DNA of 64,000 nt from the NCBI GenBank assembly GCA_030390025.1, contig CM059431.1, forward strand, positions 157,792,001 to 157,856,000, written 5' to 3'. Below are positions 2,516 through 51,340 of the stretch, piece by piece (position 1 is the first letter of the stretch; each line of letters begins with the position of its first letter). The notes beneath the pieces are model-generated. The model made no database searches. It was given only the letters and a program-made list of their open reading frames with translations, and was not told where the DNA came from. The position numbers and the translations under genes are program-made. The DNA comes from Squalus acanthias (Eukaryota).

Positions 2516-2603
2516 TCACACATCCACTCTCAGTCTGAGTCTGGATTCCTGCAGCGAACCCAGGAGTCTCTTTCCATTTGAACTGAACTCATTCCCCCAC
2601 AGC
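2516..2603 (-). CDS. NLR terminal coding exon (last LRR/cap, stop)
   Basis: Acceptor aatctgtttcag. Encodes [28 protein letters not shown] then TGA (2518-2516). Confidence 0.88.
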
Positions 2604-5600
2604 CTGAAACAGATTAAAGATTAAGCAGGAAATAAACAAATTGAACAACAGTTTAAATAACAGGGAGACTGGCGTTAATAATTCAATATTAATTTCAGAC
2701 AAATGTTACCCCTAAATATGACTGGATCCCATTGATATTTTATTTATTACATTAAAACTTAACACAAATACTCACCGGATCCGCTCCAGACTCCTGCAGG
2801 TCCGTATGAAGCGGCTGAGAGCGGGGACAGACCGGTCTGTGAAGGAGTTTGATCCCAGGGACAGATCCGTCAGTGAGCGGTTTGTACTGAGAGCGGAGGC
2901 GAGATCCTCGGCACAAGAATCTGTGAGACCGACATCACATAGCCTGGGGATCAGAGAGAGAAATAACAGGAATCAGAGTAAATCCCTAGAGTTTTTTTAA
3001 TAACACTATTACTGATACTAATAATAATGTTCAGTGTCAGACATCCAGTTATTATAAACACAATCTCACACAGTCTGGTACTTACTCCAGTTCCTGTATT
3101 TTACAGTCTGGGTTCCTCAGAGCCGCTGACAGTGGTTTCACTCCTGAATCTCCCAGTTTATTATAACCCAGGCCCAGAACCGTCAGTGACCGGTTTGTAG
3201 TGAGAGCGGAGACGAGATTCTCGGCACAAGAATCTGTGAGACCGTTATTATACAGCCTGGGGATCAGAGAGAGAAATAACAGGTATCAGAGTAAATCCCC
3301 AGAGTTTATGAATAACACTATTACTACTAATAATAATGTACAGTGTCGGACATCCAGTTATTATAAACACAATCTCACAGTCTGCTACTTACTCCAGTTC
3401 CTGTATTTTACAGTCCGGGTTCCTCAGAGCCGCAGACAGTAGTTTCACTCCTGAATCTCCCAGTTCATTGCCGCTCAGTCTAAACACAAACAGAGAGAAA
3501 CAAACTGAATCAAACTCCCGATCTGATATATTTTTCTCTCTCGGATATTGCAACAATCACTGAAAGTACTTCAGGATATTAATAACCCGGTTTCCCCCCG
3601 CGATTTCCCGATTGGGCAGGGCGTGTGCGATCGGTGGCGGGTCGGGTGCGGCCGGGGTCGGTGGCGGATCGGGTGCGGCCGGGGTCGGGTTGGGCTGCGA
3701 TCGGTGGCGGGTCGGGTGCGGCCAGGGTCACTGGCGGGTCGGGAGCGGCCGGGGTCGGTGGCGGGACGTTAGCGGCCGGGGTCGGGTTAGGCCGCGGTCG
3801 GTGGCGGGTCGGGTGCGGGCAGGGTCACTGGCGGGTCGGGTGCGGCCGGTTCGGTGGCGGGTCGGTAGCGGCCGGGGTCGGGTTGGGCCGCGGTCGGTGG
3901 CGGGTCGGGTGTGGGCAGGGTCAATGGCGGGTCGGGAGCGTCCGGAGTCGGTGGCAGGTCGGCTGCGGCCGGGGTCGGTGGCGGGTCCGGTGCGCCCGGG
4001 TTCGCTGGCGGAACGGGTGCGGCCGGGGTCGGTGGCGGGTGGGGTGTGGCCGGGGTCGCTGGCGGAACGGGTGCGGCCGGGGTCGGTGGCGGGTGGGGTG
4101 TGGCCGGGGTCGCTGGCGGAACGGGTGCGGCCGGGGTCGGTGGCGGGTCGGGTGCGGCCAGGGTCGGTGGCGGGTCGGGAGCGGCCGGGGTCGCGGCCGG
4201 GTCAGGTGCGGGAGGTGTCGGTGGCGGGTCGGGTGCGGATCGGGTGCGGCCGGTGTCGGGGGCGGGTCGGGTGTGGCTAAGGGGTCCGGAGAATTAGTGG
4301 AAGCGGGATTGATGACGTCATTTGATAAGGCGCACATTGAGTTTGACCTTTGTGATGTCAGTGTTTAACAATATTGAGGTGCTGCAAACAATGAGAAACT
4401 TTGCACAGAGGACCACGGCTGCACCCAGGCTCTCCCATAACTCCCTCCATATGCTTATGTTGGAAGCCACAGCACGCAGGGAAGTTCTCTTCACTTCCAA
4501 TGGGCGGAAGAGACTAACACAGCCTGGTTGCCCATTGCTCAGTGGGGTTCAAGCAGGGATGTCGTCAGGAGGATCAGGCTGCAGTGGCGCAAACCTTTCA
4601 ATGATCTCAGTAGATCACGAAACGTAACTACAAAACCACCCTCAAACTCATCCTGCTGTGCCACTCATCACATCCCCAATACTCTGCCTTACCTACCCTA
4701 CTCCTGCACATTATTACTCACACCAACTTAACTTGCACCTCCACCCGTCCCTCTCTATCTATATTATCACAACCCCATCTCACTAACCACCCCTCAGACT
4801 CTCCCTGAACCTAGTCCAAACATATCAACTAACAATACACAAGGATAGGCAATTATGTGTTTTAGCGAATGTTCATGTGAAGTTTCTGTTGTGTGCACCA
4901 TTGGATGAGGCGTAGTGAGTTGCAGTGAATAGGTGAGCCATAACGGTACCACACGCAATGGTTATGAGTGTGACAGGAATGGTTTGGGAATTTTAGGGAT
5001 GCTTTATGTTGTTGGTGTGGTCTGGCGGCAACCTGGAGCATAATGTGGCATCCAGGGCATCCAGCGTCCAGTGAAGATAATCTAGCCATGGTGAGGCCAA
5101 CTGTGGCGTCCTGGTTAGCATTGTGGACGAGTGTTGATGTTCTCTGTGCTGTGCAGCATCAGGAGTTGTGGAATGGGTTGGTGTTGTTGTTGGTGCTGCT
5201 GGTGTTCCTGGTGCAGCAGGTGTTTGGGCTGATGGTAGTGTTACTCTGAGGCCCGAGGTGAGACAGTAGAAACCATACCCATGCTGATGTAATAGATGGC
5301 AGGTAAATTTGAGATGACAGAAGCAATCGGTCAATGCTGAGAGAGGTAGTTCCATTGAGGGGACACTGGATAGAGAGTTTTCTCCAAACACTTGCAACTA
5401 GCATAAAGCTTGCTCTGTCTTCCAAATGCAGTAAACAACAGCTTCTGTGCTTGGAAAGGGAACAACTGTGAGACGGGAGCTTTAATAGCACATTTCTAGC
5501 TGTCAAGTAACGAGATGATTCCATGGCCATTCAATTCCCGCCCTGTTTACCTGACGTAATCCCCGAGAAGCGTGGACAACGTGGGCGAATTGGTAAACTT

Positions 5601-11600: not shown

Positions 11601-14600
11601 GGGCCGTGTAGCCTGATCATGCTCCTATTTCGTGTGTCCAATTCTGTTAGGTTCAGGAGATGGTTCTGTGATATTAGATTGGCGGTTAGGATCAGATCAG
11701 CCATGATCTTATTGAATGGCGGAGCAGGCTTGAGGGGCCAATTGGCCTACTCCTGCTCCTATTTCTTATGTTCTTATGTTCTTATGTACTGCATGGATGA
11801 ACTACAGAATTTGTTCATCCCAGTGTGGCATAAGAGTAAAAATAAAATGGTGACTCAACCGTGGCTAACAAGGGAAATTAGGGATAGCATAATTTCCGTG
11901 GAGATGGCATATAAATTGGCCAGAAAAAGCGGTAACCCTGAGGATTGTGAGCAGTCTAGGAATCAACAAAGGAGGACAAAGGGATTAATTGAGAAGGGGA
12001 AAATAGAATATGAGAGTATGCTTGCTGGGAACATAAAAACTGACTGTACGAGCTTTTATAGATATGTGAAGAGAAAAAGATTAGTGAAATCATGTGTAGG
12101 TCCCTTGCAGTCAGAAGTGGGGAAGTTATAATGGGGAACAAAGAAATGTCAGACCAATTAAATGCATATTTTGGTTCTGTCTTCACAAAGGAGGACACAA
12201 ATAATCTCCCAGAGAGGGTCTGATGAAAGGGAGGAACTGAAAGAAATCAGTATTTGCAGGAAAATTGTGTTAGGGAAATTGATGGGATTGAAGGCCGATA
12301 AATCCCCAGGGCCTTATAATCTACATCCTAGGTTACTTAAGGAAGTGGCCCTAAAAATAGTAGATGCATTGCTGATCATCTTCCAACATTCGGTGGAATC
12401 TGGAACTGTACCCATGGATTGGAGGGTAGCTAATGTTACCCCACTATTCAAAAAGTGTGATAGAGAGAAAGCGTGGAATTACAGATCGGTAAGCCTGACA
12501 TCGGTAGTGGGAAAAATGCTAGAGTCCTTTATAAAGGATGTAATCGCTGAGCACTTGAAAAACAGTGACGGGATCGGACAAAGTCAACATGGATTTACAA
12601 AAGGTAAATCGTGCTTGACTAATCTACTGGAATTTTTTGAGGAAGTAGCTGGGAAAGTAGATAAGGGAGAACCAGTAGATGTGGTGTATTTGGACTTTCA
12701 AAAGGCTTTCGATAAGGTCCCGCATAAGAGATTAGCGTGTAAAGTTAAGGGACATGGGATTGGGGGCAAGGTATTGACTTGGATAGAGAACTGGTTGTCA
12801 GACAGAAAGCAGAGAGTAGGAATTAATGGGTCTTTTTCTGAGTGGCAGGCAGTGACTAGTGGGGTACCGCAGGGATCGGTCCTTGAAACCCAGCTATTCA
12901 CAATATATATTAATGATCTAGACAAGGGAACTAGATGTAATGTCTCCAAGTTTGCAGACGACACAAAACTGGGTGGGCGTGTGTGCTGCGAGGAGGATAC
13001 CGAGAAACTCCAGGATGATTTGGACAGTTTGGGTGAGTGGGCAGAAGCGTGGCAGATGCAATATAACGTGGATAAATGCGAGGTTATCCAATTTGGTGTC
13101 AACAACAGAGCCGTGTCCACTACGGTAGAGGGTAATCCTCGGTTGAGGAAAAGGGAAGACATGTCGGAAGCATTAGTATGGAACGTGGCATCGTCAGAGC
13201 AGATGCGGCAGAGACGGAAAAACTGGGAGAATGGACCAGAGTCCTTACAGGAAGCGAGGTCGGAGGAAGTGTATTCCAGGTAGCTGTGGGAGTCAGAGCG
13301 CTTATAGTGAATACAGAAAATGCTGGAAATACTCAGCAGGTCAGGCAGCATTTGTGGAGACAGGAACAGACTTAACGTTTCAGGTCGATGAAGCTTCGTC
13401 AGAACGGTGAGGAAGGGTCATCGACCTGAAAGATTAACTCTGTTTCTTTCTCCACAGATTCTGCCTGAGCTGCTGAATATTTCCAGCATTTTCTGTTTTT
13501 ATTTCAGATTTCCAGCCGCCGCAGTATTTTGCTTTTGATTTATGGTAAATGTTTCCCAATAGCAGTAATGGAGTTTATTCTGTCCCGTTACAATTTTAAA
13601 TGTCCCTTGTGCTCCGAGTTTAATGGGGAAGGGAGTCTCTCACTTTATTCCCCTTAAAACTGGCACTATATTTATTTCAGGTGTAACTGGCCTGACAGTT
13701 TTTGGGCAATTTACGGAAGTTCCCTCCCCGAGTGGGGCCTCACACACAGGGGGCGGATTATGGGGAATTCCCGGGTTCACTGCCCCCGGTTTACCAAGGA
13801 GCCGCCCGATGTGTGTGAGTCCCCACCGCTGGCCGGTGTGTGTCTGTAATCCGGGGCTAATACCCCACAACACGTTAGATTGGAACCTTTTTACCGGCAG
13901 ATATAAGATCCTGAATAACAATTTTTACTCAATGTTCAGGACTGTGTATAGTTGTAAATATTTAAAGCTGAAAGAATTCCAGATTCCCCAAATTTCCCAA
14001 TCCAGGAAACTAACCACTGGACAGGACACACCCTGCACGGTTTTGGAGTAAATATCGAACTGTTAGTGATTTAAACTCGGGTTACTCTCCTGTCTCCAGT
14101 TGAAATGGTGGATGTGGAAAATATTTTAAATTAATTTTATCTTTACTGCCGGGTTTTATTTTATGTTTATCTTCTGCTGCACAGCCTTATTAAATATGAC
14201 TTATTGCAATTAAATTATCAGTCACTCAGTGACCTGTATTTGCTGATCCGTCAAAGACTGTAAAATCCCTACTTGTTCACAAGGGTCCGTTCCAGATTCT
14301 CCAGTCCTTAGGGAATTACTAACCGTTCCTCTTATTATTGTTCATATTTATGTTTCATCTGCTTCCCTCTGGTTTAACTGAACTGTTTGTTTCCCTTCAT
14401 TATGGAGCAACAACACAATTCGTGACTATTCTAAAATTAGCCCAAAAGTTAGAGACAAATAAACTGTTACCCCAAAACCCGGCATTTGTGCAGTACGGGT
14501 CCCAGCCGCTGGAATCCTTCACACTGAATGGAGCAGTTATGCAGATCGAGGTTTTTTATTGTATCACAGAGTCCAATGACATGAGACAGGACCGCACAGT

Positions 14601-17600
14601 CAATCGGGGTCAATCTCAATCCACGAAAAGTAAGTGTTTTCACAGATCCCACTGTGGCCCGAGCCAGTGCTTTATTCTGAGACTCAAACATGTAGTGGAA
14701 TGTGTTCAGGAGGTTTATTTTATCAGTTTCACTCTCTGTGTTTCCAATCTGTCCTTCAACCTTCTCCTTCACCCAGTCAATCACTCGGCAGGTGGTTTGA
14801 TGAAGAAATGGACCCAGAAACTCCTCCAGGGGCCGAGCTGACTGTGGGGAGGAGAGACCAGCAACAAAACGGAGAAATATCTCAAATCGCCCATCTTCCT
14901 TGCTGTGGGCTTCTCTGAGGAATTTCAGGATGTCCCCGGGATCTGGAGTCAGGAAATGTGCGAGTGCGGCTACAAACTCTTGGATGGTGAGGTGCGGGAA
15001 TGTGTACACCACGCTCTGGGCAGAAACATCTCTCTCCAAAAGTTCCATCATGAACCCAGACAGGAACTGGGAAGGTTGCAGATTGTATTTGATCAAATCT
15101 CCATTTCTAAACACAATCTTCTTCTCGGAGACTCCTGTGAAGGCCATCTCACCGATCTTCAGTAACACATCACGGGGGCTTTCAATCTCTCGGCCATGGT
15201 TTTTCAGAATGTTGTAAATATAGTAGCAATATAGTTGGGTAATGGTTTTGGGAACTCGCTGCTGATTCCTGTCTCTTTGTGTAAAGAAGGGACCCAGTGA
15301 CAGACCGAGGATCCAGCAGTAGGAAGGGTTGTAGCACATTGTGTACAGGATCTCGTTCTCTTCCACGTGTTTAAAAACTGCTGCTGCCACAGTCTGATCT
15401 TCAAAAAACTTGTTGAAATATTCCTTCCGTTCTTCACCAACAAATCCCAGGATTTCAGCCCAGACACTGATCTCAGCCTTTTCCAATAAATGTAATGCAG
15501 TGGGGCGGCTGGTCACTAGCACTGAACATCCTGGGAGCAGCTTGTGCTGTATTAAACTGTACACAATGTCAGAAACTTCACACCAGCATTCGGGATGTGT
15601 GCATATGTACTGAGGTTCTGTATTTCTGCGATTGTCAGCAAAATCGATACTGTCCTTGAATTCATCCAAACCATCGAATATAAACAGCAATGTCTCTGGG
15701 TTCTTCCAGAGCTCTCCCAGAATATTCCCAAAGTAAGGATACAGATCCAGTATCAGATTCCTCAGGTTTATTCTACAGCTAATAGCGTTCAAATCCCGGA
15801 ATTTAAAGCTGAAAACAAATTGAAAGTGTGGGTATATTTTCCCAGTGGCCCAGTCATGAACAATCTTTTGTACCATTGTTGTTTTCCCAATCCCCGGGAC
15901 TCCGCTCACTGCTCCTGAACTTCCAGAATTGAATTTTGTCCGGGAAAAACTGCTGTTGAACAATTGATCAGTTCGGATTTTTTCCAGCTCTCTCCGGAGA
16001 TGTTTCTCTCTCCACTCTTCATGGTCTCGGCCTCTTGCCAGCAGTTCATGTTCTACAAGTGTCCGATCTCGAACAGTAGAAATGACCGTTAGCTCAGCGT
16101 ATCGATCAACCAGCTGGAACATCTTAACCTTCTCCTTTATTAGGATAGTGTTTACTCTCAGTGTTTCAGTTTGAACCCGGAGTGCTTCCTTGTGTTTATG
16201 TTGAACATCTTCAATTAGAACAGACAAAAAAGTTTTCAATGTTAGTTATAATGACAAAGAAATCTCCGATACACTGGTCTGCTTTTCAGTAAAATGTAAC
16301 AGGATCTACTTCGATATTTTAATCGAGGACAGTTAGAAAACGAAAACCAACATTTCCTGAGAATCTTGTTTGACAGGAACTTTCGGAGAGAAGTTTTAAA
16401 TCAACATTGGACACTAATATTTACATAACATGGCGAGCTGGGTGAAGGTGGAATGTTCCCTCTGATGGTGAATACTATCTGTCGCACAATGTACTGCAGA
16501 CATCTCATTACAAATCCACATGTGATTCTGATTATATGGCTTCAGTGGTTATAATGTAAAAATGATTGAACCCCCACCCAGCAGAGCGGAGCTTTTGTAC
16601 AAATAGAAAATCGGAAATTGGGAAGCACTGAGAGAGGGACAGGCTCACAATGTACTAATTGGGCAGCACTGAGAGAGGGACAGGATCGCAATGTACTGTT
16701 TGGGCAGCACTGAGAGTGGGACAGTCTCACAATGTACTGATAGGGCAGCACAGAGAGAGGGGCAGGCTCACAATGTACTGATTGGGCAGCACTGAGAGGG
16801 GGACAGGTTCACAATGTACTGATTGGGCAGCACTGAGAGAGGGACGGGTTCACAATGTACTGATGTTACCCAATTATTTGATCAGCACTTGTGTGAGCTC
16901 TTGAAAAATTCTATACATTTCCGGTTAACATGTCACAGGGAAATGTAAATATTATTGTGAAGGGAAAAAGGGGATTAGCAGCAACAACTTGAATTGATAT
17001 AGCCCGTTCAACTTAATACAAACGTCCCAAGAGGCTTTGCAGAAGCGTAATCAGATAAGATGAAACACCGAGCTAAATAAAGAGATATTAGAACGGGTAA
17101 CCAAAAGCTTACTCAAAGAGGTAGACTTTACGAGTGAAAAGGCGATAAGTAGAGGCGGATAGGGTTAACCAGGGTATTCCAGAGTTCAGGGCCGAGGCTG
17201 CTGAGAACACAGCCGCCAAAATTGTAGGAGTGAAAATCAGGGATGCACAAAGTTCAAAATTGAGGAGTGCAGATATCTCGCAGGGTTGTAGGCCTGGAGC
17301 AGATTGCAGAGATAAAGAGGGGTGAGGTCATGGAGGGACTGAATACAACGATGATAATTTCAAAATCAGGGCTCTGCCAGACACGAGAAAAAGTAGGTCA
17401 GCGAGCACATGCGTGATGGGTGAACGGGACTTGGTGCGAGTTCCGATAGGCACAGCAGAGTTTTGGATAAGCTCAAATTTACAGAGGATGGAACGTGGTT
17501 GGTTTGCAAGCCTTAGCGTGTTGGAATAATTGAGATTGGAGATAACAAAGGCATAGATGAGGATTGCAGCATTAGATGGGCTGAGGCAGGGGAGCAGACA

Positions 17601-23600: not shown

Positions 23601-26600
23601 TCACTGCTCCCTCTCCTCCTCCAGTCCCAAAAGCAGTCCTGTGACACCACCCATGATTATAGCCAAACTATCTATGAGGCAGCCAACAACAGTGCAAGAT
23701 CAGGAGCATCTTGCCCTCTTTAAACAAAGCAAAACTATCCAATGTGATAAAACACAGCAAGAAACGCCACGAAGTTTACCAGCTGCCTGAAACGACAAGT
23801 CAGTTACCAAATTTTAGGTTCCCCATGACCCCTTTCAATAGCACTGATGAGGGCTCCTTCCTGCCGGTTTGTGCCTGGTGTTGCTCGGCGGGTTCAGCAC
23901 GTGGCGTGAGATGTTGCGGCGTAGCAAAAGCGGGAAAAGTTCCACTTGAAGCGCAGGACCCTCATTAAAATAACATTTCAACTCTTAAGTTATACTGACC
24001 TGCACTCCCGACATCACAGCGAAGCCCGATCCGCACTTCAGGCTGGAAGTGTGCGGACACTTCCTGTCCACCATGTCGGCCGCAGGAGGCCGATAAACAG
24101 CTGAAAAACGAGCAGTGCGCGACCGAATATCTAAGCCAATCACTAAGTGCTACACTCACTGGTACATCATCCATTGAATCATCCAGGGAAGCCCCAATAA
24201 CTTCATTTTCTCTGCTGATTAATGGCTGTTTTTATCCGACTGACCACTGAGAGTTTGATGTTTTATCCCGGTCAGTGACGTGCACTGGCAGCAAAGGCCA
24301 GTTGCAGGAACAGCTGGATAAACTACTGGAGTAATGACAACATCTGCAAATTTACAGATAATCCCAAGCCTGGTGTGAATTGTAACTTCACCCCACACAT
24401 TTGAATGACACATTTAAGTATCAGTGACAAGTGAAAATGAAGTTGAATTCTTTTTGCCCAGCTCTTGAACTTTTCACCCCCAGATTCTAGACATCTCGAA
24501 ACCAATGGTCAAAGTTAAAGCCTCTAATAATCAGAAGCGAAATAACCTGTTTGAAATCATCATCCCATCACCTACCTTTCAGCTGAATGGGAACTTCGGA
24601 TAAACATTCTGTGGCTTTCATGTCATTAAATCGAAAGAAACCTGTTTAAATAAATTAGCTTTCATGAAAGCAAATCTGTGAACTACTTTAGTAAAGTATG
24701 TAATTTTAGATGTGAAATTGAATTCCGTGTATGATTTTACCGTACCAAGTTCCTGTATTTCTTTCAGTATTTTGTCCAACTTTGGTACCCCATGACGCAT
24801 TTTCACAAAGGATTCCCACATTGTCCTTCGGGCCCGAGAGCCTTTCTCCATCACCAGATTTAGGAGAAGTTTGGAACTGTCCGCCCGGTTTCCCTTCTCC
24901 ACGAGATCAGTGATTTTCTGTAAAGAATAATAATGAATATATTGAGGAGCGGAGTGAAATATCAATTTCACCCCATACTCACCCTGTTTATTGAATTCGA
25001 TACTTTTGATTCCGTTCAACAACAGGACCACGGCAATTAATTTAATTGAAGTGAATATTAGTTACCGATTGGTAAATTTTTGACACTAACTTCGCTAGTT
25101 GGTTTGGCATGGATGAATGACGCTGTTCAGCAGAATATTGCGCAGCAGGTTATAAATACTCACACAGACGAAGTTTACTCCTTCTCAGAAAGTGCAGATA
25201 CTCTGAGGTCCATGAAATTTCAATGATTCTTGCAGGGATTTACTGAAGCGGTGGGATAAATCGCTTTTCCATGGGAATATGTGAGGCCATTTTACCTGGA
25301 TGTCCTGCTCCTGCTAAGATCATGTAGACCCAACCACTCCAGGGACTGTACTTCATGTATTGAATCTCCGCACCCCAATCTCCCACATTAATCTGAATAC
25401 AGCTGTCTGACTCCATCAAATGCTGTCAAGGGGAATCCTAAATATCTGCTCATTGACATCTCCACTAATTAACGGTGGTTGGATTATTTCTACTTATTGC
25501 TTCTGCTGTAGCAACATTGAGTTCCCTCCAGTATTTTTTCACTCTATACTTAATTCGATAATCCACAGTTTTATTCAATTGACACCAATTTTTTGAGAGA
25601 TTTTTTTGGACACATTAATGCTTTCGATACTGGACGGGCTGCTACAGATTCAACTCAATGTAAATTGGGGTTGACCATTGGTCTCGTCTGAGGCTTGTAT
25701 CATGTGTCTGGTTTACTACTTACGGTCCAAGTTCCACAGTATTATCTACAGTTCGATTGTTTTATCTTTTCAAGCATTCATAAGACCCGGATCATGTTCC
25801 CCTCCTCACTTTTTTTCCTGTAAGGTGATAAATTCAGCTCTGTGACTGTGTTTTGTAAAGAAAGGTCCTCGGGCCTAGTATGACCGTTCTGCTCTGCTCT
25901 GACCCCACTCCCCATTATTCGTTCATTCAGATGTTAGGGGGCTCAATCCTGCTCAGCAATGGCCTCAGCAATGTTCTGTGCAACTATAAGCCATGAATGG
26001 GAGTGTTTAACCTAATTTGGTAGGGGGATGGGAACCAGGATGAAGAATTACAGAGGAGAAACAAGGTGTATCGAGCATTGCGAGAGACAAATAGCAATAG
26101 AATATGAAACAGTCCAGAGAGAGGAGGAATCAGACAGGGGAGAAATGCGAAACAGACTAAGGCTTGTGTAGAATGCATATGCCTCAATGCACGGGGCGTG
26201 ACCAATAATGTTGTTAAGCTGTAGGCATATAGGTTATGATATAATAGCAAGATGGATAACTGGCTCAAACAATGAGAGGAATCAGAACATAACATTCCTG
26301 GATACAATGAGTTCAGGGTGCATGAGGAAGAAAAATAGTGGGGTGGGGGAGGGTGACAGTAGACTGGGGAAAACACAGAGTAATTGCCAAGGGGGGATGG
26401 AATTCCTGAAATGTTTAGACGAGAACATTCTTGATTAATATATTTCCATCCCAACAAGGAAGGAAGCAGTGCTAGATCTAGTTACGGGCATTGAAGTGGG
26501 GAAAGTGGAGCACGTTTCAGTCGGACAGCATTTGGGGAACAGCGATCACAATATCATTAGGTTTCGAGCAGTAATGGAAAGGGAGAATGAACAATCTAAG

Positions 26601-29600
26601 GTGAATATGCTCAACTGAAATAGGGCTTACTTCAGTGAGCTGTAAACGGATCAGTTGAATTGGAAACAAAGATTGGCAGATAAAAGCGTAAATGAGTAAT
26701 GGGAGGCCTTCAAAGAGGAGATATCACAGGTACAGACCAGACACGTTCCTATGAGGGGGAAGGAAAGGCATTCAAAGCTAGAGCGCCCTGGATTACTAAA
26801 GATATAGAGGTTAAACTTAAACAAAAAAGTTGGCTTATAATAAATGTCATATTCATAACACAATGGAGAGAATCAAGAAGCATACAGAAAGTGCAGAGGA
26901 GAACTGAAACCGGAAATATGAGGGCCTAAGAGACTGTATGAGAAAATATCATCGGTTAAAATAAAGGGGAATACTATAGTCATTTATAAATATTTAAATA
27001 GTAAAAGTTTAATCAAACGAATGCTGGGGCCGAATAAGGACCAAAAACGAGATCTCTTTGTGGAGCCAAAGGGCATGGCTGAGGAACTAAATTAATGCGT
27101 TGCATCTGTCTTCACAAAGCAAGAGCGTGCTGCCTATGTCACAGTAAACGAAGAGATAATAGAGAAATTGGATACGTTGCAAATAGGTAAAGGGGAGGCA
27201 CTTAAATTATTGGCAGCACTCAAAGTATAAACTCCACCCTCTCCGGATGAAATTAATCCTCAGTTGCTGAGGGATGTAAGGGTGGAAATTTTCGTTTTGC
27301 AAGCTACAATTATCCAATCCTCCGTGGACATGTGAGTGGTGCCAGAGGACTGGAGAGTTGCCAATGTCACACCTCTGTTCAAAACAGAGGAGAGGAAAAG
27401 CAACTGCAGGCCAGTCGGCCTAATGTCGGTGGTGGAGCAACTGCTAGACAATCATACAGGGCAAAATTGTCACTTGGAAAGACATATGTTAATAAATTAC
27501 AGCCAGCACCAGGGATGAGGGTCTTCAGTTACATGGACGGGATGGAACTGTCTGTTTGACACCCCTTATCTAGATGCATAATTGGGGCACTTTCAGTAAT
27601 TCTTTGGTATCCCGTGATGAGAAATTGTCTGGTTTGGTTAGTATTCAGATTCCAATTTTTCCTACTACTTGTTTGGAAAAGTTAGGAACGTTCTCATTGG
27701 AACAAAGAAGGTGACCTAATAGGGGTTTTAAAGATGATGAGATGATTTGATAGAGTCGATAGAGAAAAAACTATTCCCTCTGGTAAGAAGTTCAATAACC
27801 AGAGGTCATATATATAAAATCACTGAAAAAGATCTCGAGGGAGGACGAGGACAATTGTTCTCACTGAGAGTTGTCAGGATTAGGAACGCTCTACCTGAAA
27901 AGATGGTGGAAGCTGATTACACAAATAATTTTAAAGGGAGTTGGACAGGAACTTGAGAATGAGGAACTTACAGGGCTATGGACAAAAGGTTGGAATTCGG
28001 GACTAAGCAGGACTGTTATTTCAAAGAGTCTGCAGAGACACGACGCGTCAAATGGTATCCGTCTGTGCTATATGTTTCTGTAATTCTACTAATTATAGCT
28101 GTTTAATTCGCTTGAATATCCTGAGGATCTTCATAGAACAACAATTTGATTTTGCTCTGGTATCTGAATCAATATAAATTGGATCATTCTATTCAGTTGA
28201 TCCGACACTCCCCACAGGTTTTTTTGGATGGTTTGCGCTGTTTGGGTCCAATACTTGTTCACTGGTTTAGCATTTTCTAAAAAAATATATTTCCTTTACC
28301 ACGCAGATAATTTTTTACCCTCTCACAGTTCCTCGATATACTTTAAGTAGTTTGTAGGTCAATCAACTCATGAATTCCATCCAAATTCCATTAGTTGATT
28401 CCCGCCTCTGTTTCCCAGTGCTACTACAATTCTTGGATCCCTTTGAGTTCAGCCCACGAAGGGTTATATCGCTCCCGGTACCCTGTCCTTTCTTTGTACA
28501 GACACTGACTGATCTGCTGGGTATTTTAACATTCGTGTTGTTGTTTCATATTTACACCATTAACAGTTAGAATCATTTCTTTCCTATTTGATCTGTTTCT
28601 CTTCACTAACATTCTGTGATTCTAAGATCTGATATCCTGTCAGTACTTTGATATTTAAATAATCCAAACTCATTCTGTGTCCCTCCCACTTACCCGATGT
28701 TCTTGTCCACTGAAATGCCTCTCGTATGTTAACAACGAGCTGACTCCGTCCACCCCTCCTTCAATCGCCTGTTCCAGTCTGTCCCGGTAGAATTTCGTCA
28801 ACTGGAACAGATGGAAATCGTTGCACTCTGTCAAGAACTCAGTGATTGTAGAGTTCGGAACTATGAACACAAATGGGGAAAACTAAACACATTATTCACT
28901 TTATATCCAAGCTGCAACATTTCCTCTTATTCCAGACGGCTGAAGCCTCCTGTGAGCCACATCGAACACCTTGTGAAAAACCATATAAAACGCACTTGCT
29001 ACATCCCGTCGATCTACATAGTGAATTCTTTAAAAACAGTGTTTAAATTTCTCAAACACGACTACTAATCCGTGCCAGCCTCCCCTGATCACCCCCTCTC
29101 AACGCTCACTAATTCAGACTTCAATTACAAATTCGAGCAGTCTGCTCTCGACTGCCATAGACTAGCTAATCCAGTTACCCGATTTTCCGCTCTCCACCAT
29201 TGTTGAACAGACGTTACTTGGGCTCCTTCAGCGATCAAATATATAGTCTATATCTAAAGCGGATTGATAAATTATGCAGTCTCTTCCTATCTCCTCTGTG
29301 ACTTCCTTTAACATCCTGGAGTGCATTTTTTCTGGGACCATTGACTTATCCACATTGGCTATTTTTCTCAAATCCAAATCCTTCTCTACAGTTATCTCTA
29401 ACTATGCTCCCACATCCTCCTCTATTACACCAACATTCGCACTACCAATTCATGTTTAGAAACTAAATGAAATATATGATATCTCCTTAAAACGTCATCC
29501 TCCACAATTAGATTCCCCATTCATCCCGAGTCCTACAGCCTTGAATTATTATTTCACTTCTAATAAACGCTGATTTTTATATTATCCGGAGGCGTTGTCC

Positions 29601-35600: not shown

Positions 35601-38600
35601 GGACAAAGGGCTTAATCAAGAGGGGCAAAATAGCTTACGAAAGCAAGCTGGCGGAAAATATAAAAACTAACTCCAAAAGCTTTTATAAGTATATCAAGAG
35701 GAAAAGACTGGTGAAAACCAAAGTTGGCCCATTGCAGTCAGATACGGGGGAATATATAACGGGAAATAAGGAAATGGCAGACCAACTAAATGCATACTTT
35801 GGGTCAGTCTTTACGAAGGAAGACACAAAAAACCTCCCTGGGATATCGGGAAAAATAGGGACATTTGCAAAGGAGGAACTGACGCAAATCAATATCTCTA
35901 AGGATATGGTGTTAAGGAAGCTAAAGGGATTGAAGGCGGACAAATCCCCAGGGCCTGATAACATGCATCCTAGGGTGCTGAAGGAGGTGGCCCTAGAGAT
36001 AGCGGATGCACTAAGTATGATTTTTCAGAATTCATTAGACTCGGGAACAGTGCCCATGGATTGGAGGGTAGCTAACGTTACCCCACTATTCAAAAAGGGG
36101 GGTAGGGAAAAATCAGGTAATTACAGACCTGTAAGCCTTACATCAGTTGTGGGCAAAATGCTGGAGTCCATCATTAAGGATGAAATAGCGGAGCACTTAG
36201 CAAATGGGGACAGGATAGGACAGAGTCAACATGGATTTACAAAGGGTAAATCGTGCTTGACTAATCTATTGGAATTTTTTGAGGGAGTAACTGGTAAAAT
36301 AGATGGGGGAGAGCCAGTAGATGTGGTGTACCTGGACTTCCAAAAGGCCTTCGATAAGGTCCCACATAAAAGATTAGCAGGGAAAATTGAAGCTCATGGG
36401 ATAAAGGGGAAAGTATTGACGTGGATAGAGAACTGGCTGTCAGATAGAAAACAGAGAGTTGGAATAAACGGCTCATTTTCTGAATGGCAGGCAGTAACAA
36501 GTGGGGTACCGCAGGGATCTGTCCTGGGTCCCCAGCTGTTCACAATTTACATTAATGACCTGGATCAGGGAGTCGGATGCAGCATTTCCAAATTTGCAGA
36601 CGACACTAAACTAGGAGGGGGGGTGGGCTCAGAGGAGGAGACCAGGAAGCTCCAGAGCGATTTGGACAGACTGGGTGATTGGGCGGATAAATGGCAGATG
36701 CACTATAATGTGGACAAGTGCGAAGTTATCCACCTTGGGTGCAGGAACGGGAGGGCAAATTATTATTTAAATGGCAATAAATTGGGAGAGGGGGAAGTAC
36801 AGAGAGACCTGGGTGTTCTTGTACACCAGTCACTGAAGGCGAGCATGCAGGTGCAACAGGCGGTCAAGAAGGCAAACGGTATGCTGGCCTTCATAGCAAA
36901 AGGGTTGGAATACAGGAACAGGGATACCTTGCTGCAGCTGTACAGGGCACTGGTGAGACCACACCTCGAGTACTGTGTACAGTTTTGGTCGCCTCATCTG
37001 AGGAAAGATGTTCTTGCCATGGGTGGCGTGCAGCGGCGATTCACCAGGCTGATACCAGGAATGGCGGGATTGACCTATGAGGAGAGACTATGTAGTTTAG
37101 GGATGTACACACTGGAGTTTAGAAGATTGAGAGGGGACCTCATAGAAGTGTATAAAATTCTGACAGGTCTAGACAGACTAGATGCAGAAGGAATGTTTCC
37201 CTTGGCGGGTGAGAACAGAACTAGAGGACATAATTTAAGGATAAGGGCTAAACCATTTAGGACAGAAATGAGGGGGAATTTCTTCACTCAGAGGGTGGTG
37301 AACCTGTGGAACTCATTGCCACAGAGGGCAGTGTACGCCAGCTCATTAAATATATTTAAGAGGGAATTAGATATATTTCTACAGGCAAAAGGGGTTAAGG
37401 GTTACGGAGAGAAGGCGGGGACGGGATACTGAATTGGAGAATCAGCCATGATCTCATTAAATGGCGGAGCAGGCTCGAAGGGCCGGATGGCCTACTCCTG
37501 CTCCTATCTTCTATGTATCTATGTATCTATGTAAGGACAGAAATTATATTTAAAGAATATTGTGAACCCACCTGTGTCCATTCTCATTCTTGAAGATGTT
37601 GTATCTTCTCCCCTGTTTGGACCTTCAGCCATGCTGGTGGCAGGCGTTCCCAGATTCGGATGGTCTGTAATAAATATATTAATAGGAGGGTTAGACGGAA
37701 ACATTAAAATGAGAAGGAAACGATGCTTGGTTAAACATGATATCAGGTCCCTCCTCTCCCATCAGTACAACAGCTGTTAGCTCTGGGATCGAGCATTTCC
37801 CGAGTGTTACGGTTAACTCTCCACATCAGGTGTGACACAGACAGCTGCCCAGTGAAATCCAGTGAGTCCCGCTGATCTCCACAACCGAGTTCCAGACAGG
37901 CTCCCGTCGGCCGAGACTCTGCACTGGGAGTGTCCATTCGTGAGATTTACTCACATAGTGCAGGACAAAACCAGCCTTATTACTGAGGTAGAGAATATTC
38001 TGCAGGGAAATAACGAGCGGGTGATCATTGATGTATTCAATGATCCTTCACTAGGTTTTACAGTGTGGCAGTGTTGGATTATTTTTATTTACAGGTTGGT
38101 TTTTAATATTTTTGATTTGTTGTTTTTTGATATTAAATTCTGCTATTTTATGAAAATGATATCTATCCACCTACACAATATATAGCTGGTTGTGATCCCT
38201 CTAGTCTCTATGGGCAGTGACATTGTTCGTGTGTTCATGGAGATGTGTCCTGGTTGGTGTTTCTATATGAATATATTGATCATATCTCTCATGGTGTCAG
38301 CACCTGACTAATGAGCCCTTGCAATGTAGAATCATAGAAAGATAGAATCATAGAATGTTTACAGCACATATGGAGGCCATTCGGCCCGTCGAGCCCGTGC
38401 CGACTCTCTGCAAGAGCACTTCAGCTAGTCCCACCCCCCCCCGCCCTTTTCCCGCAGCCCTGAATTTTTTTTCCATCGGGTTCTAATGCAATTCCATTTT
38501 GAAAATCACGATTGAATCGGCCTCCACCACCGTTTCAGCCAGTGTATTCCAGATCCTAACCACTCGCTGCGTAAAAAAGTTTTTCCTCATGTCGCCTTTG

Positions 38601-44600: not shown

Positions 44601-45256
44601 ATCTTCCTGCCATCTGATAGATAGAAGAAATCCGTATTCCTGGAGACTTCCTCCCGCAAAACCTCGAATTCAGTGTCCGAAAACTGGGCGGCCCTTGCGG
44701 GGTCATATTTTAAACTATATTATATATTTTTTTGCATTTTTTCCATTAAGTGAATGGACAGAGTTTTGTTGTAGTGTTTGAAATGTTCAGGGATGTTTAA
44801 TTTGAAGTGAGTTTCATTCTACTAACCTGTTTTTTGGTCAAAGTTTGTAGTATTCATATTTAATAAACCTTCGGGGGAAGGAGTCGGTTCACTTGTACCG
44901 TTTCCAGGGGCCTGATCACCTTCCCCAGGAGCAGGGCCTTGAATCTGACTCTGCTCACTTGTACAGGTTCCTGGGGCCTGAGCATCTTCCCCAGGAGCAG
45001 GGCCTTGAATCAGACTCTGTTCACTTGTACAGGTTCCTGGGGCCTGAGCATCTTCCCCAGGAGCAGAGCCTTGAATCTGACTCTGTTCACTTGTACAGGT
45101 TCCTGGGGCCTGAGCATCTTCCCCAGGAGCAGGGCCTTGAATCTGACTCTGCTCACTTGTACCGGTTCCTGGGGCCTGAGCATCTTCCCCAGGAGCAGGG
45201 CCTTGAATCTGGCGTTGTTTTCTTGCACCGCTTTGTTTACTTGATGAGTGCCCCAT
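2516..45256 (-). CDS. Spliced NLR immune receptor gene (myristoylation motif + 22-aa repeats + CARD-like + NACHT + LRR), 9 coding exons, about 1028 aa
   Basis: Exons 45256-44827, 28860-28694, 24917-24746, 24641-24576, 16208-14471, 3479-3393, 3256-3086, 2943-2776 and 2603-2516 all have GT/AG introns with matching phases (1,0,1,1,2,2,2,2). They sum to 3087 nt = 1029 codons ending in TGA. Small extra exons cannot be excluded without RNA data. Confidence 0.85.
2776..2943 (-). CDS. NLR LRR exon (168 nt, two LRRs)
   Basis: Acceptor ctgatccccag, donor CG|gtgagt. Encodes [55 protein letters not shown]. Confidence 0.92.
3086..3256 (-). CDS. NLR LRR exon (171 nt, two LRRs)
   Basis: Acceptor ctgatccccag, donor GGA|gtaagt. 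Encodes [56 protein letters not shown]. Confidence 0.93.
3393..3479 (-). CDS. NLR LRR exon (87 nt)
   Basis: Acceptor tttgtgtttag, donor GGA|gtaagt. Encodes [28 protein letters not shown], an RI-type LRR; phase 2/2. Confidence 0.92.
3590..5850 (+). mobile_element. Degraded PIF/Harbinger-type DNA transposon with Myb/SANT-like remnant
   Basis: 4391-4615 translates across a frameshift to [12 protein letters not shown]...RREVLF...AWLPIA...[14 protein letters not shown], a Myb/SANT pattern. Inverted match 3627-3646 vs 5803-5822 (19/20). Right end aaaattcccccc. Confidence 0.6.
3627..4275. repeat. G-rich 27-bp minisatellite
   Basis: Unit gtcggtggcgggtcgggtgcggccggg; period 27 (3631, 3658). Confidence 0.95.
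6253..6615 (-). mobile_element. Penelope-like element terminal (pLTR) fragment
   Basis: Homologous to 46260-46585. Contains a degenerate hammerhead core on the minus strand (CTGACGA...GAAAC). Confidence 0.8.
6662..13100 (+). mobile_element. CR1 LINE (ORF1 esterase end, ORF2 APE + RT), interrupted at 8073-11787 and truncated at 13100
   Basis: ORF1 SGNH-like [14 protein letters not shown] motifs LNARS, ITETWL, MGDFN; RT motifs [24 protein letters not shown]. The reading QTFKD resumes as CMDELQ after the insert. Confidence 0.92.
8073..11787 (+). mobile_element. Nested CR1 LINE with rearranged 5' end
   Basis: Degenerate APE/RT, ORF2 end at 11551, (TTCTTATG)n tail to 11787. Flanked by ACTG at 8069-8072 and 11788-11791. 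Confidence 0.92.
13105..13540 (-). mobile_element. Penelope-like fragment (RT thumb) plus inverted pLTR pair
   Basis: Minus translation [37 protein letters not shown]...NRGLP. Arms 13313-13401 and 13408-13496 are reverse complements. Confidence 0.85.
14471..16208 (-). CDS. NLR NACHT exon (pre-NACHT region, NBD, HD1, WHD, HD2, first LRRs)
   Basis: Intact 590-aa ORF with Walker A GVPGIGKT, Walker [11 protein letters not shown], sensor VLVTSRP and winged-helix FPHLTIQEF. Acceptor ctaattgaag, donor TTGGG|gtaaca. Confidence 0.97.
16605..16865. repeat. 41-bp minisatellite, about 6 copies
   Basis: Unit cactgagagagggacaggctcacaatgtactgattgggcag; starts at 16626, 16667, 16708. Confidence 0.92.
16975..18065 (-). 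mobile_element. L2-type LINE 3' fragment
   Basis: ORF 17328-17666 reads YFHLHNL...[14 protein letters not shown]...ELIQNSA, the L2 ORF2 C-terminal pattern. Confidence 0.85.
18081..18973. mobile_element. Non-autonomous PIF/Harbinger-type element (MITE-like), 893 bp
   Basis: TIRs gggggagaaattcag (18081-18095) and ctgaatttttccccc (18959-18973), 14/15 match; 3-bp TSD ATA on both sides. Confidence 0.88.
19922..19962. repeat. (TA)n microsatellite inside CR1
   Basis: Imperfect TA run. Confidence 0.9.
22840..23100 (+). mobile_element. RTE-clade LINE C-terminal fragment
   Basis: Translation [41 protein letters not shown] matches the RTE ORF C-terminal pattern. Confidence 0.8.
23317..23610. repeat. 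21-bp minisatellite, about 14 copies
   Basis: Unit tgctgtattcctcactgctcc. Confidence 0.95.
24576..24641 (-). CDS. NLR 66-nt linker exon
   Basis: Acceptor atttaaacag, donor AAAG|gtaggt. Encodes (G)[21 protein letters not shown](D); phase 1/1, joins the NACHT exon in frame. Not in the ORF track. Confidence 0.75.
24746..24917 (-). CDS. NLR exon: second half of CARD-like domain
   Basis: Acceptor ttattctttacag, donor TTG|gtacgg. Encodes [57 protein letters not shown]; phase 0 in, phase 1 out. Confidence 0.85.
25990..28085 (+). mobile_element. Old, internally deleted CR1 LINE
   Basis: Remnants [15 protein letters not shown] and [15 protein letters not shown]; 3' end SITRGHIYK...[10 protein letters not shown]; many stops. 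Confidence 0.85.
28694..28860 (-). CDS. NLR exon: first half of CARD-like death-fold domain
   Basis: Acceptor tgtgttcatag, donor CGG|gtaagt. Encodes [55 protein letters not shown]. Confidence 0.85.
30380..34460 (+). mobile_element. Old LINE (CR1/Jockey group, second family), RT 3' half, split by an antisense copy of the same family
   Basis: 30420-30607 reads [15 protein letters not shown]...HKCQAL. It resumes at about 33748 and includes [24 protein letters not shown]-rich end near 34460. Confidence 0.75.
30608..33747 (-). mobile_element. Near full-length LINE (same family), APE + RT, degraded
   Basis: [11 protein letters not shown] and [12 protein letters not shown]-side [16 protein letters not shown]-terminal [15 protein letters not shown]-rich tail at 30608. 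Confidence 0.88.
34880..35165 (+). mobile_element. Old CR1 3' fragment
   Basis: Reads [27 protein letters not shown]..., followed by a remnant of the CR1 3' UTR (gctcgaagggtcgaatg). Confidence 0.75.
35223..37532 (+). mobile_element. Young 5'-truncated CR1 LINE with uninterrupted ORF2 (APE end + RT)
   Basis: 741-aa open frame to 37432 with intact RT motifs ([26 protein letters not shown]); (CTATGTAT)n tail. Confidence 0.97.
38325..40925 (-). mobile_element. Degraded CR1 LINE
   Basis: ORFs 38483-38848, 39794-40006 and 40139-40450 carry CR1 ORF2 motifs; (ATAGAATC)n tail at 38325-38355. Confidence 0.9.
39449..39600 (-). mobile_element. Short CR1 3'-UTR-only insertion nested in the CR1 above
   Basis: (CATAAGAA)n tail and 3' UTR matching the reverse complement of 11640-11787. 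Confidence 0.85.
41200..42540 (-). mobile_element. L2-type LINE fragment
   Basis: [23 protein letters not shown] and [12 protein letters not shown] (YADDT-like); L2-type 3' end at about 41205. Confidence 0.85.
42905..43875. repeat. C-rich 27-bp minisatellite, about 35 copies
   Basis: Unit actgacccagccctacaccgacacccc; period 27 (42955, 42982). Confidence 0.95.
44827..45256 (-). CDS. NLR coding exon 1: MGHSSSK N-terminus plus five 22-aa repeats
   Basis: Acceptor ttttttgcag precedes exon start 45273. ATG is in good Kozak context (gagATGG). Donor is ACAG|gttagt. The 430 coding nt end in phase 1, matching the next exon (G|TT=Val). Confidence 0.75.
44888..45217 (-). repeat. Coding 66-bp tandem repeat, 5 copies
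   Basis: Period 66 (44941, 45007); encodes [22 protein letters not shown]. Confidence 0.95.
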
Positions 45257-45439
45257 CTCAGGCAACTTGTTACCTGCAAAAAACAATAATTTCAGGTTAT
45301 AGCAGGGTATATTAGAACAGAACAGAAACATGTGGATTCAAAATAATTCCATTGCAGCGCTGATTCGAAATCGAGAAACGAGGCCATCAATTTGTGAATT
45401 CTAAAATCGTGAAAAATATTTCCGCTGGTTGTTCATCAG

Positions 45440-48860: not shown

Positions 48861-49429
48861 ACCTATAAATTGCAATTCTCCATGTCTGGGTTTTTCGTTG
48901 TTAGAATTCTGCATATCTTTAGTGATCATTAAATCACAAATTCTAGATGTTTGTAATTAGCTATGTATTTCCTTATAATTATATTTGTTTGTGAATGAAT
49001 AATTTACTCTGTCGGCGATAGACCTTGCTGATCTTTGAGATTGGTCTGTGCATCGTGTTTAGTGAACTGACTATGGTGTTTCCGTTTCAATCTTTCCATT
49101 TGAATTGTCACCAGATCTAAGCTAATTTATAATAGAGATCTAAGGGTGTCGGTTTGGGTTCAGCCCACCAAATAAACAGGCACGTGCCCGTCTGCTGGGC
49201 TCTGCCTCAGACCAGAGTCACTATTTAGATCAAATCCCTTTACTAGAAAACACGTAAAAGATTCACTTGTGACTGTGTGTTCAGAGACAGAACCTGATCT
49301 CTCTTCACATTTCATTGCACGGCCACATGCTGTATAATTGTGGTCGGTGCTCAGACTCTCCCAGTCTCATTCTCACCATTTAACGCCTTACCTTGTAACC
49401 TTTGTGTAACGTCTAAAGGAATAGGATAT

Positions 49430-49750
49430 ATCTGTGACAATTGGACTCTCTCTGACCTTTCTCCCCGGTCCATCTCCAGTACCAGTGTGTATCTGAGTCA
49501 ACTGGAATCTCTCTCTGAACTTTCTCCCCGGTCAATCTCCAGGAACAGTGTCTATCTGAGTCAAAGGGATTCTCTCTGACTTTTCTCCCCAGTCCGTCTT
49601 CACGACCAGTGTGTATCGGCGTCACTGGGAATCTCTCTGACCTTTCTTCCCGGTCCATCTCCAGGACCAGTGTGTCTCTGAGTCAATGGGACATTCTGTT
49701 ACCTTTCTCCACAGTCCATCTCCAGCACAAGTGTATATCTAAGTCAATAG
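49430..49750. repeat. Short array (about 5 units) of the 61-bp satellite
   Basis: Same unit as 59500-64000. Confidence 0.9.
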
Positions 49751-51340
49751 GACTGCCTGTTAACTTGCTCCCCAGTCGATCTAGTAATGCTCTTGGAATC
49801 GGAAGATTTCTCTCTGGTTGGTGCTCTCACAATCCTGTGCTGGTTCACCTGCTGTCATTCCTCAGTCTACAATGCCTGTTTACTTCCAGCTGTGCAGCTT
49901 CCTCAATCACTCCATCATTTACCAGGAGATCTAATTATGGCAGGACAGAAAATGAGAACAAAATTGACGGTGTGAACTAAAACGTAATGTGCACGTTTGC
50001 TATAATTATCTAATTGTGGCAGGGCTGAAAATAATCTAATATTGACTGTGAAGTAAATCCCCACGGAGCAACCACAGCCCTGCTATTAATTTGTTCGCTG
50101 CCTTTTCTTCCATTCACCGCAGTGAAAGATCTGTGCTTTGTTCGTTCTCCTCCACAGCAGCATCGCAAATTCCAACAAACGAAATCAAATTGCTTGAAAT
50201 GACCACTCAGATATCCTCAGAGCATTCCTGTATTAACTGCCAGTTATTCCCTGCCCCAGCCGCTCTGAGATACAATTCCTGCTTATTTTAAACAACGCCC
50301 AGTTTCTGCCCTGTTGAATACAGCGGTTACGACATTCTGCGTTTCTCTGCAGTTTGCAACAGGAGATCCAGGGCGGTAGCTGAAACTATCTTCCTCGTTG
50401 CCGAGAAAACTGTGGGACCAATCGCTGCCGGATACTCCGCATCTTCAGCTTCAGTGCCGAGTATTTCTGTTCGATTCTTCCTGTTCCTCAGGTACCCGGC
50501 ATGCCCGCCCGGACTGCCTAGAAATACCCAGAATTCGAGGCAGAATGTAACATTTTCTGTCTGCGCATTAGACAAAACGGCGTTGTTTGAATTCATTGGG
50601 CCCATCCTCCCCGGGTTTCATACTGTCTCATCTCACTGGGCCCATCTTCCCCGGATCACACACTGTCTCATCTCACTGGGCCCATTCTCCACGGGGTACA
50701 CACTGTCTGATCTAACAGGGCCAATCCTCCCCGTGTTAGAACACTGACAGATCTCATTGGGCCTTCCTCCCCGGGTAACACAATAACTCTTCTCACTAGT
50801 CCCATCCTCCCCTGGTTACAAACTGGCTGATCTAACTGGCCGCATCCTCCCTGGGTTACAAACTGTCTGATCCCACTGGACACACCCTCCTCAGGTTACT
50901 CACTGGCTGAACTTTCTGGGCCAATCCTACAAGGGTAAGACACTGCCTGATCTCACTGGGTCCATCCTCCAAGGTTTACACACTGTCTGATCTCACTGGT
51001 CCCATCGTCCCCGGGTTACAAACTGTCTGATGTCACTGAGCCCATGCTTCCCGGTTTAAACACTGTCTGATCTCACTGGGCCCATCCTCCCCGGTTACAC
51101 GCTGTCTGATCTCATTAAGACCATCCACCCGGGATACACACTGCCTGATCTCAACGGGCCCATCAACCCCGGGTTACATATTATCTGATCTCACTGGGCC
51201 CATCCTCCCGGCTTTACACACTGTCTGATCTCGCTGGACCGATCGATCCTCTTCGTGTTACACACTGTCTGATCTCACTGGGCCCATCCTCCCCGGGTAG
51301 CACACTGTCCGATCTCACTGGGCCCATCCTCCCCGGGTTA

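Follow-up and report, generated by a model that had tools for sequence, protein, structure and literature searches.

A coding minisatellite with Gln-Gly units heads a predicted CARD-NACHT-LRR receptor gene in Squalus acanthias

Introduction

Whether a run of Gln-Gly pairs at the N-terminus of a shark NLR protein is a bait for viral proteases or a repeat of another kind is the question raised by a locus of Squalus acanthias. The locus lies in a stretch of 64,000 nucleotides (assembly GCA_030390025.1, contig CM059431.1, positions 157,792,001 to 157,856,000), referred to here as the window, whose minus strand encodes a predicted CARD-NACHT-LRR receptor headed by five 22-residue units with one Gln-Gly apiece. 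A preliminary description, made from the sequence, proposed that these units form an expandable bait in a disordered linker between a membrane anchor and a CARD, and that viral cleavage frees the receptor from the membrane by a mechanism that does without FIIND. We find that the array is a coding minisatellite, and we give about even confidence to the reading that it forms a length-variable disordered arm behind a predicted lipid anchor, with Gln-Gly as this lineage's state of a tolerant position. The Gln and Gly of each pair are numbered P1 and P1', as in protease sites, and papers are cited by PubMed Central (PMC) number where there is one.

Repeat array and coding exon

Translation of the minus strand at 44888-45217 reproduced the five described units exactly (Table 1). 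At the DNA level, the array is a 66-bp minisatellite of 4.9 copies with 95% matches and zero indels. Its five QG pairs are the only ones within the first 1,030 residues of the gene model, and the LRR tail has none. This fivefold recurrence does not amount to fivefold evidence, because the copies are one duplicated unit. When the unit was shuffled at equal composition, QG appeared in 49% of shuffles, QGP in 8.4% and hydrophobic-QGP in 0.5%, the last statistic having been picked after the sequence was seen.

The RNA available consists of reads from related organisms with pooled paralogues; two of the sets, X6 and X9, are presumed to be RNA. In X21, a raw RNA run of a relative of which about 26% was read, 655 reads fell on the repeat exon (E2), most of them 90-95% alike to the window, and their depth was confined mostly between the two splice borders of E2, with little outside. 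Loose ends at 44827 (6 X21 reads and 2 X6 contigs) continue into the next NLR exon, E3; the X6 loose end matches 37635-37662 with 2 mismatches in 28 bases, a match that none of 100 shuffles gave. At the other border, loose ends at 45272 (26 X21 reads, also X6 and X9) originate from an upstream exon. The array might still be a non-coding intronic minisatellite with an accidental frame: E2 lies 7 kb from the next exon amid many non-coding minisatellites, two plus-strand frames are also open, and the RNA comes from relatives. Against this stand the RNA depth ending at both splice borders, the loose ends that join E3, exon phases that give an intact frame, and the presence of homologous units at the N-termini of 15 or more annotated NLR proteins in five named sharks, so that a non-coding origin is exceedingly improbable. 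The preliminary description had made its proposal depend on the exon being coding, and on this point it holds.

Some local features of the exon deserve mention. A single base change in unit 3 (45068-45067 and neighbours) turns the P2' proline into serine, and the relatives' RNA keeps proline. A swap of this kind determines whether human CARD8 responds to enterovirus or to coronavirus proteases (PMC10249858); here it is anecdotal, being one event among nine amino-acid departures. Units 2-4 carry a cysteine (45097, 45031 and 44965) where relatives have glycine, and these may be palmitoylation or redox sites. In the E2 tail (44830-44890), all seven of the displayed differences from relatives alter the amino acid, which suggests weak constraint or fast evolution.

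Gene model and predicted domains

Splicing ten exons at canonical sites by coordinates gave an intact frame of 1,059 residues, in which the repeat and linker exons come first, followed by two CARD exons, a further linker, the NACHT exon and four LRR exons; the exons beyond E2 were placed by tblastn of 120 listed NACHT homologues. The NACHT exon shares 91% identity with 'NLRP3-like' models of Heptranchias perlo, and 81-91% with the 120 matches listed. The spliced model contains no FIIND, its LRRs being followed by a stop at 2516. When six homologues were scanned with Pfam at E values up to 1, no CARD, FIIND, pyrin or B30.2 domain was matched, and the absence of FIIND noted in the preliminary description was thus borne out by both model and scans.

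The first folded domain was assigned through a close homologue. The effector domain of P0127 is 82% identical to that of the window and was modelled with a predicted local distance difference test score (pLDDT) above 90. In VIA-align, this model reached a best Z of 11.3 (root-mean-square deviation 1.9, 96 residues aligned), and 29 of the 30 top rows were CARD-bearing structures, as judged partly by their titles. Foldseek also ranked CARDs first for the P0127 domain, but with no E value below 0.001, and an Atlas feature score of 0.88 for a CARD assignment is a lead only. Together, the structure models support a CARD as the N-terminal folded domain of the window protein, rather than the PYD of the family's automatic name.

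Upstream of the CARD, an AlphaFold model of the repeat exon had a mean pLDDT of 45 with zero residues above 70, and the homologous array of P0127 was modelled with no secondary structure; the arm is therefore predicted to be disordered, in line with the linker first described. The best AlphaFold model of the exon placed short strands at QIQ and TxTS of every unit, as might be seen if the units stacked into a beta-solenoid or an amyloid-like signalling motif. Given the low confidence of these strands, their absence from the homologous array and the 14 prolines in 110 residues, such stacking is very improbable.

The protein begins with a predicted N-myristoylation signal. Ser6 and Lys7 are favoured by N-myristoyltransferase (PMC7044312), and a MGxxx[S/C]K start recurs in five homologues; other starts are MENSS (Heterodontus and Pristiophorus P0055) and MSLLS (Scyliorhinus torazame). 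By motif, the window protein may be N-myristoylated. Of the anchor and CARD named in the preliminary description, the CARD has gained support from the fold of the 82%-identical domain, and the anchor stays a motif prediction.

Distribution of the repeat in elasmobranchs

Family counts are those of a sample, since each search was limited to about 8,000 candidates and the NACHT homologue search excluded proteins of more than 1,012 residues. The repeat unit was found in at least 15 other shark proteins (from Pristiophorus, Heterodontus, two Scyliorhinus species and Mustelus), among which P0127/P0128 and P0129/P0130 are close pairs or possibly the same gene, and in one ray protein. In two repeat searches, all matches (14 of 14 and 9 of 9) were elasmobranch proteins. 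Among 1.84 billion representatives searched with the repeat, 2 of 21 matches were true homologues and the rest looked like unrelated low-complexity repeats; the repeat exon matched none of the Pfam families, and nothing usable came from the ESM Atlas. Copy number ranges from 1 to at least 22 units per relative, and the array is expandable, as had been proposed.

A unit profile kept 119 of 125 units from 16 proteins, with the ray left out and six units with internal deletions dropped, two of which have QG. The P1-P1' pairs in the 119 units were QH (56), QA (24), QG (14, of which 5 in the window), HG (11), QT (11) and QE, QQ and EH (1 each). Outside the window, 9 of 114 units have QG, or 11 of 120 when the shifted units that had been dropped are counted, and QG occurs in 2 of the 15 other proteins, so that the retention of QG in relatives expected from the preliminary description largely fails. 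QG units occur in three proteins, each of which has Gly2, a CARD and QG in its first unit. P1 varies as well: in Pristiophorus P0123, 11 of 19 units have His in place of Gln. Within a gene, the arrays are nearly uniform, P0151 having QH in 22 of 22 units. Heterodontus models that start MENSS, and hence have no Gly2, carry 2-22 units, and the CARD-less models P0125, P0131 and P0197 carry 10-12. The Heterodontus gene represented by P0106 and P0155-P0158, starting MGNPSSK, has YLQ/GP in its first unit alone and IQ/HP in the others.

In catshark and smooth-hound models (P0125, P0194-P0196, P0131, P0197 and P0153), the repeat exon runs to the NACHT exon and a CARD is absent; P0125 and P0131 cluster in the NACHT tree. 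Such models are possibly effector-less sensors, or else model errors. The stingray protein P0154 has amplified a 24-residue unit with Gln-Pro and no SQI, consisting of the unit end and the start of the exon tail, and it also has two larger N-terminal duplications. None of 82 Heptranchias models carries a unit, by a hand count that includes isoforms and incomplete models. In a NACHT tree built from 54 of the 132 regions, most paralogues cluster with others of their species, the repeat-bearing members are scattered and the window gene stands beside Heptranchias paralogues, a pattern that fits an old, optional exon with lineage-wise homogenization.

Gln-Gly as a possible viral protease site

The enterovirus 3C motif [A/hydrophobic]XXQG (PMC7857732) matches 0 of the 5 window units and 0 of the 119 family units. 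The validated NLRP1 site itself has Gly rather than a hydrophobic residue at P4 (PMC7857732); Ser at P4 is therefore not fatal, and a missed motif is no exclusion. In the table of 796 enterovirus polyproteins in the same paper, which prints each site twice, 66 text matches to IQGP and 28 to QIQG correspond to 33 and 14 sites; SQIQ, IQAP, IQHP and IQTP occur in none. A P2' proline is favoured by enterovirus 3C and occurs in zero of more than 10,000 betacoronavirus sites (PMC10249858). The window has QG in 5 of 5 units and P2' proline in 4 of 5. The coronavirus 3C-like (3CL) core XX-hydrophobic-Q[G/A/S] is present in 5 of 5 window units and 38 of 119 family units, of which only one, window unit 3, has no P2' proline. 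As judged from these residues, cleavage of the window site by an enterovirus-type 3C is quite plausible, and a coronavirus-type 3CL probably leaves it uncut except at unit 3; the P2' proline thus argues in four of five units against the 3CL cleavage that the preliminary description had included.

The series of P1' residues in the family also recalls kobuviruses, which use Q/G, Q/H, Q/T, Q/S and Q/A (PMC8567428). This candidate was rejected: by eye, 0 of the 90 tabulated kobuvirus sites has a P2' proline (PMC8567428), and the 3C of Aichi virus fails to activate the P2'-proline variant of CARD8 (PMC10249858).

Interpretation of the repeat arm

In the reading of the array as a variable, anchored arm, N-myristoyltransferase would acylate Gly2, with Ser6 and Lys7 present, to give a membrane anchor, and basic residues at positions 7, 12, 13 and 15 could supply a second membrane signal. 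The acidic arm would remain extended and keep the CARD-NACHT-LRR receptor off or near the membrane, while unequal crossing-over or slippage of the frame-preserving unit would shift arm length and homogenize copies within a gene. Signalling may follow the usual NLR route by analogy with NOD1 and NLRC4, for which NACHT oligomerization and CARD-CARD recruitment are established. The exon would be an optional module, relatives that lack or skip E2 starting at the Met of the next exon.

The position-wise variation bears on this reading in two ways. Of the 22 positions, P1' varies most (2.2 bits, species-weighted), and it takes 5 of 45 parsimony steps over 14 gene consensuses. Taken over all positions, the steps show no overdispersion (p 0.35-0.40), as expected under weak, even constraint. 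Conservation ranks P4-P4' first among 22 windows, nearly level with four neighbouring ones (0.80 versus 0.81-0.86). One DNA contig alters a P1 Gln. Several points count against the arm as a tolerant, anchored spacer. In sharks, conservation within the unit is highest at P4-P1 and P2'-P3', on either side of the most variable position, and conserved flanks with a variable P1' are not predicted by a pure spacer; the joint p for quiet flanks and a busy P1', a statistic chosen after the data were seen, is 0.002 at the register of the preliminary description and about 0.05 at any register. All 8 well-supported base differences between the window unit and the relatives' RNA lie outside P4-P4' (p 0.027), in a comparison that covered 40 of 140 difference rows. 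The long arrays in paralogues without Gly2 weaken the tether role and leave neutral expansion there. Myristoylation is a motif prediction, and His at position 3 falls outside the PROSITE myristoylation pattern.

Conserved flanks around a free position would be accounted for if S-Q-I-Q-x-P-A were a short recognition motif for a host enzyme or binding partner, repeated for avidity, an explanation that would work without Gly2 or CARD and that we consider unlikely. QxP occurs in 103 of 119 units and 15 of 16 proteins, and SQ in 102 of 119. Ser-Gln kinase sites of the ATM/ATR type are one candidate; to our knowledge, RHIM, LC8 and TRAF motifs do not fit the arm. Transglutaminase recognition is another candidate, Q-X-P being a preferred substrate of transglutaminase 2 (PMC11252922). 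When units are shuffled, however, composition alone gives QxP in 44% of them and S/T-Q in 60%, the amplified unit of the ray has neither QxP nor SQ, the positions are not overdispersed and the partner is a candidate only.

That the arm is a tripwire for picornavirus-type 3C, with a cut that frees or activates CARD-NACHT-LRR without FIIND and a P1' that tracks proteases by lineage, appears doubtful to us. Its wider form, in which S-Q-I-Q/x-P-A is an expandable bait across the family with P1' (Gly, His, Ala, Thr) retuned per lineage, release from the membrane as the trigger and CARD-less members as dedicated sensors, seems no less doubtful. The anatomy of the proposal holds and the enterovirus-type sites are plausible: IQGP and QIQG are natural sites, the P2' proline suits 3C, P1' toggles cleavage of bat CARD8 (PMC10249858), and cartilaginous fish host picornaviruses, including the genus Rajidapivirus from a skate (PMC8322000). 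The restriction of QG units to proteins with Gly2 and CARD, and the lack of a well-supported P1 or P1' change among the displayed rows of the relatives' RNA, point the same way. The rarity of QG outside the window, the failure of all 119 units to match the 3C motif, the absence of SQIQ and of the other P1' states from enterovirus sites and the lack of P2' proline in kobuvirus and betacoronavirus sites all speak against it. Arrays are long in genes without anchor or without CARD, in which a cut could not free a CARD from a membrane. An extra activation step would be needed, because FIIND, which supplies it in NLRP1 and CARD8, is absent, and a new N-terminus could instead send the CARD-bearing fragment whole to N-degron degradation, as may be reasoned from PMC7458402. 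A bait for many proteases would also profit from variety and need one cut only, and the arrays are nearly uniform. The converse relation, in which viral proteases cut the site to detach or destabilize the receptor and P1' His, Thr or Glu are host escapes, would fit the hypervariable P1' and has precedents in NLRP12, where the Gly after the cleavage site is Asp or His in other species (PMC7850364), and in megabat CARD8, which is antagonized by 3CL (PMC10249858). An attacked host would not be expected to multiply and retain five QG copies, as the relatives appear to do, and we regard such antagonism as improbable.

Comparison with known receptors

The window gene belongs to an elasmobranch-expanded NLR family named automatically 'NACHT, LRR and PYD domains-containing protein 3-like / 12-like', with the same domain order and with homologous repeats in Pristiophorus, Heterodontus, Scyliorhinus and Mustelus, and likely to the NLRP-related expansion of the whale shark (PMC8455134). 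In contrast to that name, the effector domain folds as a CARD, and Pfam matched no pyrin domain of the kind that heads true NLRP proteins. Sharks are reported to have no clear NLRP orthologues and an expanded NLR family of their own, and an N-terminal repeat or lipid anchor is not described in the passages on this expansion (PMC8455134). We found no description of the repeat, anchor or bait in print, in a search that left subscription journals largely outside.

Like human NLRP1 and CARD8, the window protein has a disordered N-terminal region with Gln-Gly, and in those proteins P1' and P2' switch cleavage (PMC7857732, PMC10249858). Those two proteins depend on self-cleavage of a FIIND and free a CARD at the C-terminus, whereas the window gene has no FIIND and an N-terminal CARD; for lack of a FIIND it is not a sensor of the NLRP1/CARD8 type, although it could resemble one in what it senses. 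Their baits are single, fast-evolving sites, as opposed to a homogenized tandem repeat with conserved flanks. The zebrafish NLR-B30.2 groups 2-4 (bioRxiv 10.1101/022061) are comparable, by description: these fish NLRs have likewise expanded within a lineage, and they carry an N-terminal peptide repeat whose copy number varies and which has been shuffled among paralogues. But their unit has about 30 residues and many end in B30.2, whereas here a 22-residue unit is repeated within one exon and B30.2 is absent. Receptors of the NOD1/NLRC4 type share the domain order and the CARD fold (Z 10.6-11.0), with a CARD identity to the window homologue of just 12-17%; we know of none with a myristoylated repeat arm.

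Other features of the window

Table 1. Positions of the features of the receptor gene in the window
Feature	Position	Strand	Basis or remark
Probable upstream, likely untranslated exon, running into 61-bp minisatellite	49703..49930 (borders approximate)	-	RNA loose end; P0251
E2, first coding exon: 17-nt leader, start, array, 21-residue tail, phase-1 donor	44827..45273	-	Splice sites; relatives' RNA depth and loose ends at both borders
Start codon and MGHSSSK, predicted N-myristoylation signal (Gly2, Ser6, Lys7)	45236..45256	-	Sequence
Five 66-bp units in register, residues 13-122	44891..45220	-	Predicted disordered, acidic: 14 D/E versus 2 K/R
Unit 1 Gln-Gly (RQIQ/GP)	45200..45205	-	Translation
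Unit 2 Gln-Gly (SQIQ/GP)	45134..45139	-	Translation
Unit 3 Gln-Gly (SQIQ/GS), sole window unit without P2' proline	45068..45073	-	Translation
Unit 4 Gln-Gly (SLIQ/GP)	45002..45007	-	Translation
Unit 5 Gln-Gly (SQIQ/GP)	44936..44941	-	Translation
E3, 31-residue linker with second Met (MAEG), annotated start of many relatives	37572..37664	-	tblastn; RNA loose end
CARD exon 1	28694..28860	-	tblastn, splice model, homologue fold
CARD exon 2	24746..24917	-	tblastn, splice model, homologue fold
22-residue linker exon	24576..24641	-	tblastn, splice model
NACHT, winged-helix and HD2 exon	14471..16208	-	Pfam NACHT (E 2e-36), NOD2_WH, NLRC4_HD2
LRR exon 1	3393..3479	-	tblastn, splice model
LRR exon 2	3086..3256	-	tblastn, splice model
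LRR exon 3	2776..2943	-	tblastn, splice model
Last coding exon and stop	2516..2603	-	Splice model; FIIND- or CARD-like sequence absent after LRRs

The RNA loose ends from the upstream exon had their best window matches, by a loose comparison, in a 61-bp repeat family, for example at 49764, where 22 of 29 bases match in a tie with two places in the larger 61-bp array; exact-pattern searches for this exon gave no match in the window. The N-terminus of P0251 matches 49854-49768 (E 7e-17), and P0251 splices the upstream exon directly to E3. An in-frame upstream Met is absent for the two best-fitting donors, and 4 of 13 candidate donors would add one. The 61-bp minisatellite family occupies 49429-49782 and 59505-63996; its units contain donor-like sites and are similar to the terminal part of the exon that the relatives' RNA joins to the repeat exon. 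The 5' leader may thus end inside a minisatellite. Identical pairs of reading frames at 60589-61218/62957-63586 and 51550-52122/54567-55139 mark recent higher-order duplications inside the 61-bp and 40-bp arrays. Within an intron, a 768-residue open frame on the minus strand (35126-37432) resembles, by eye, the reverse transcriptase of a non-long-terminal-repeat retrotransposon.

Significance for the receptor family

An optional exon with a predicted lipid anchor and a variable arm would offer a handle on how the paralogues of this family differ in location and control. If the bait were real, it would mean protease sensing in a vertebrate without FIIND, an idea that the natural P1' series would make readily testable; if it were not, the array would be a further example of N-terminal repeats that turn over in an expanded NLR family of fish.

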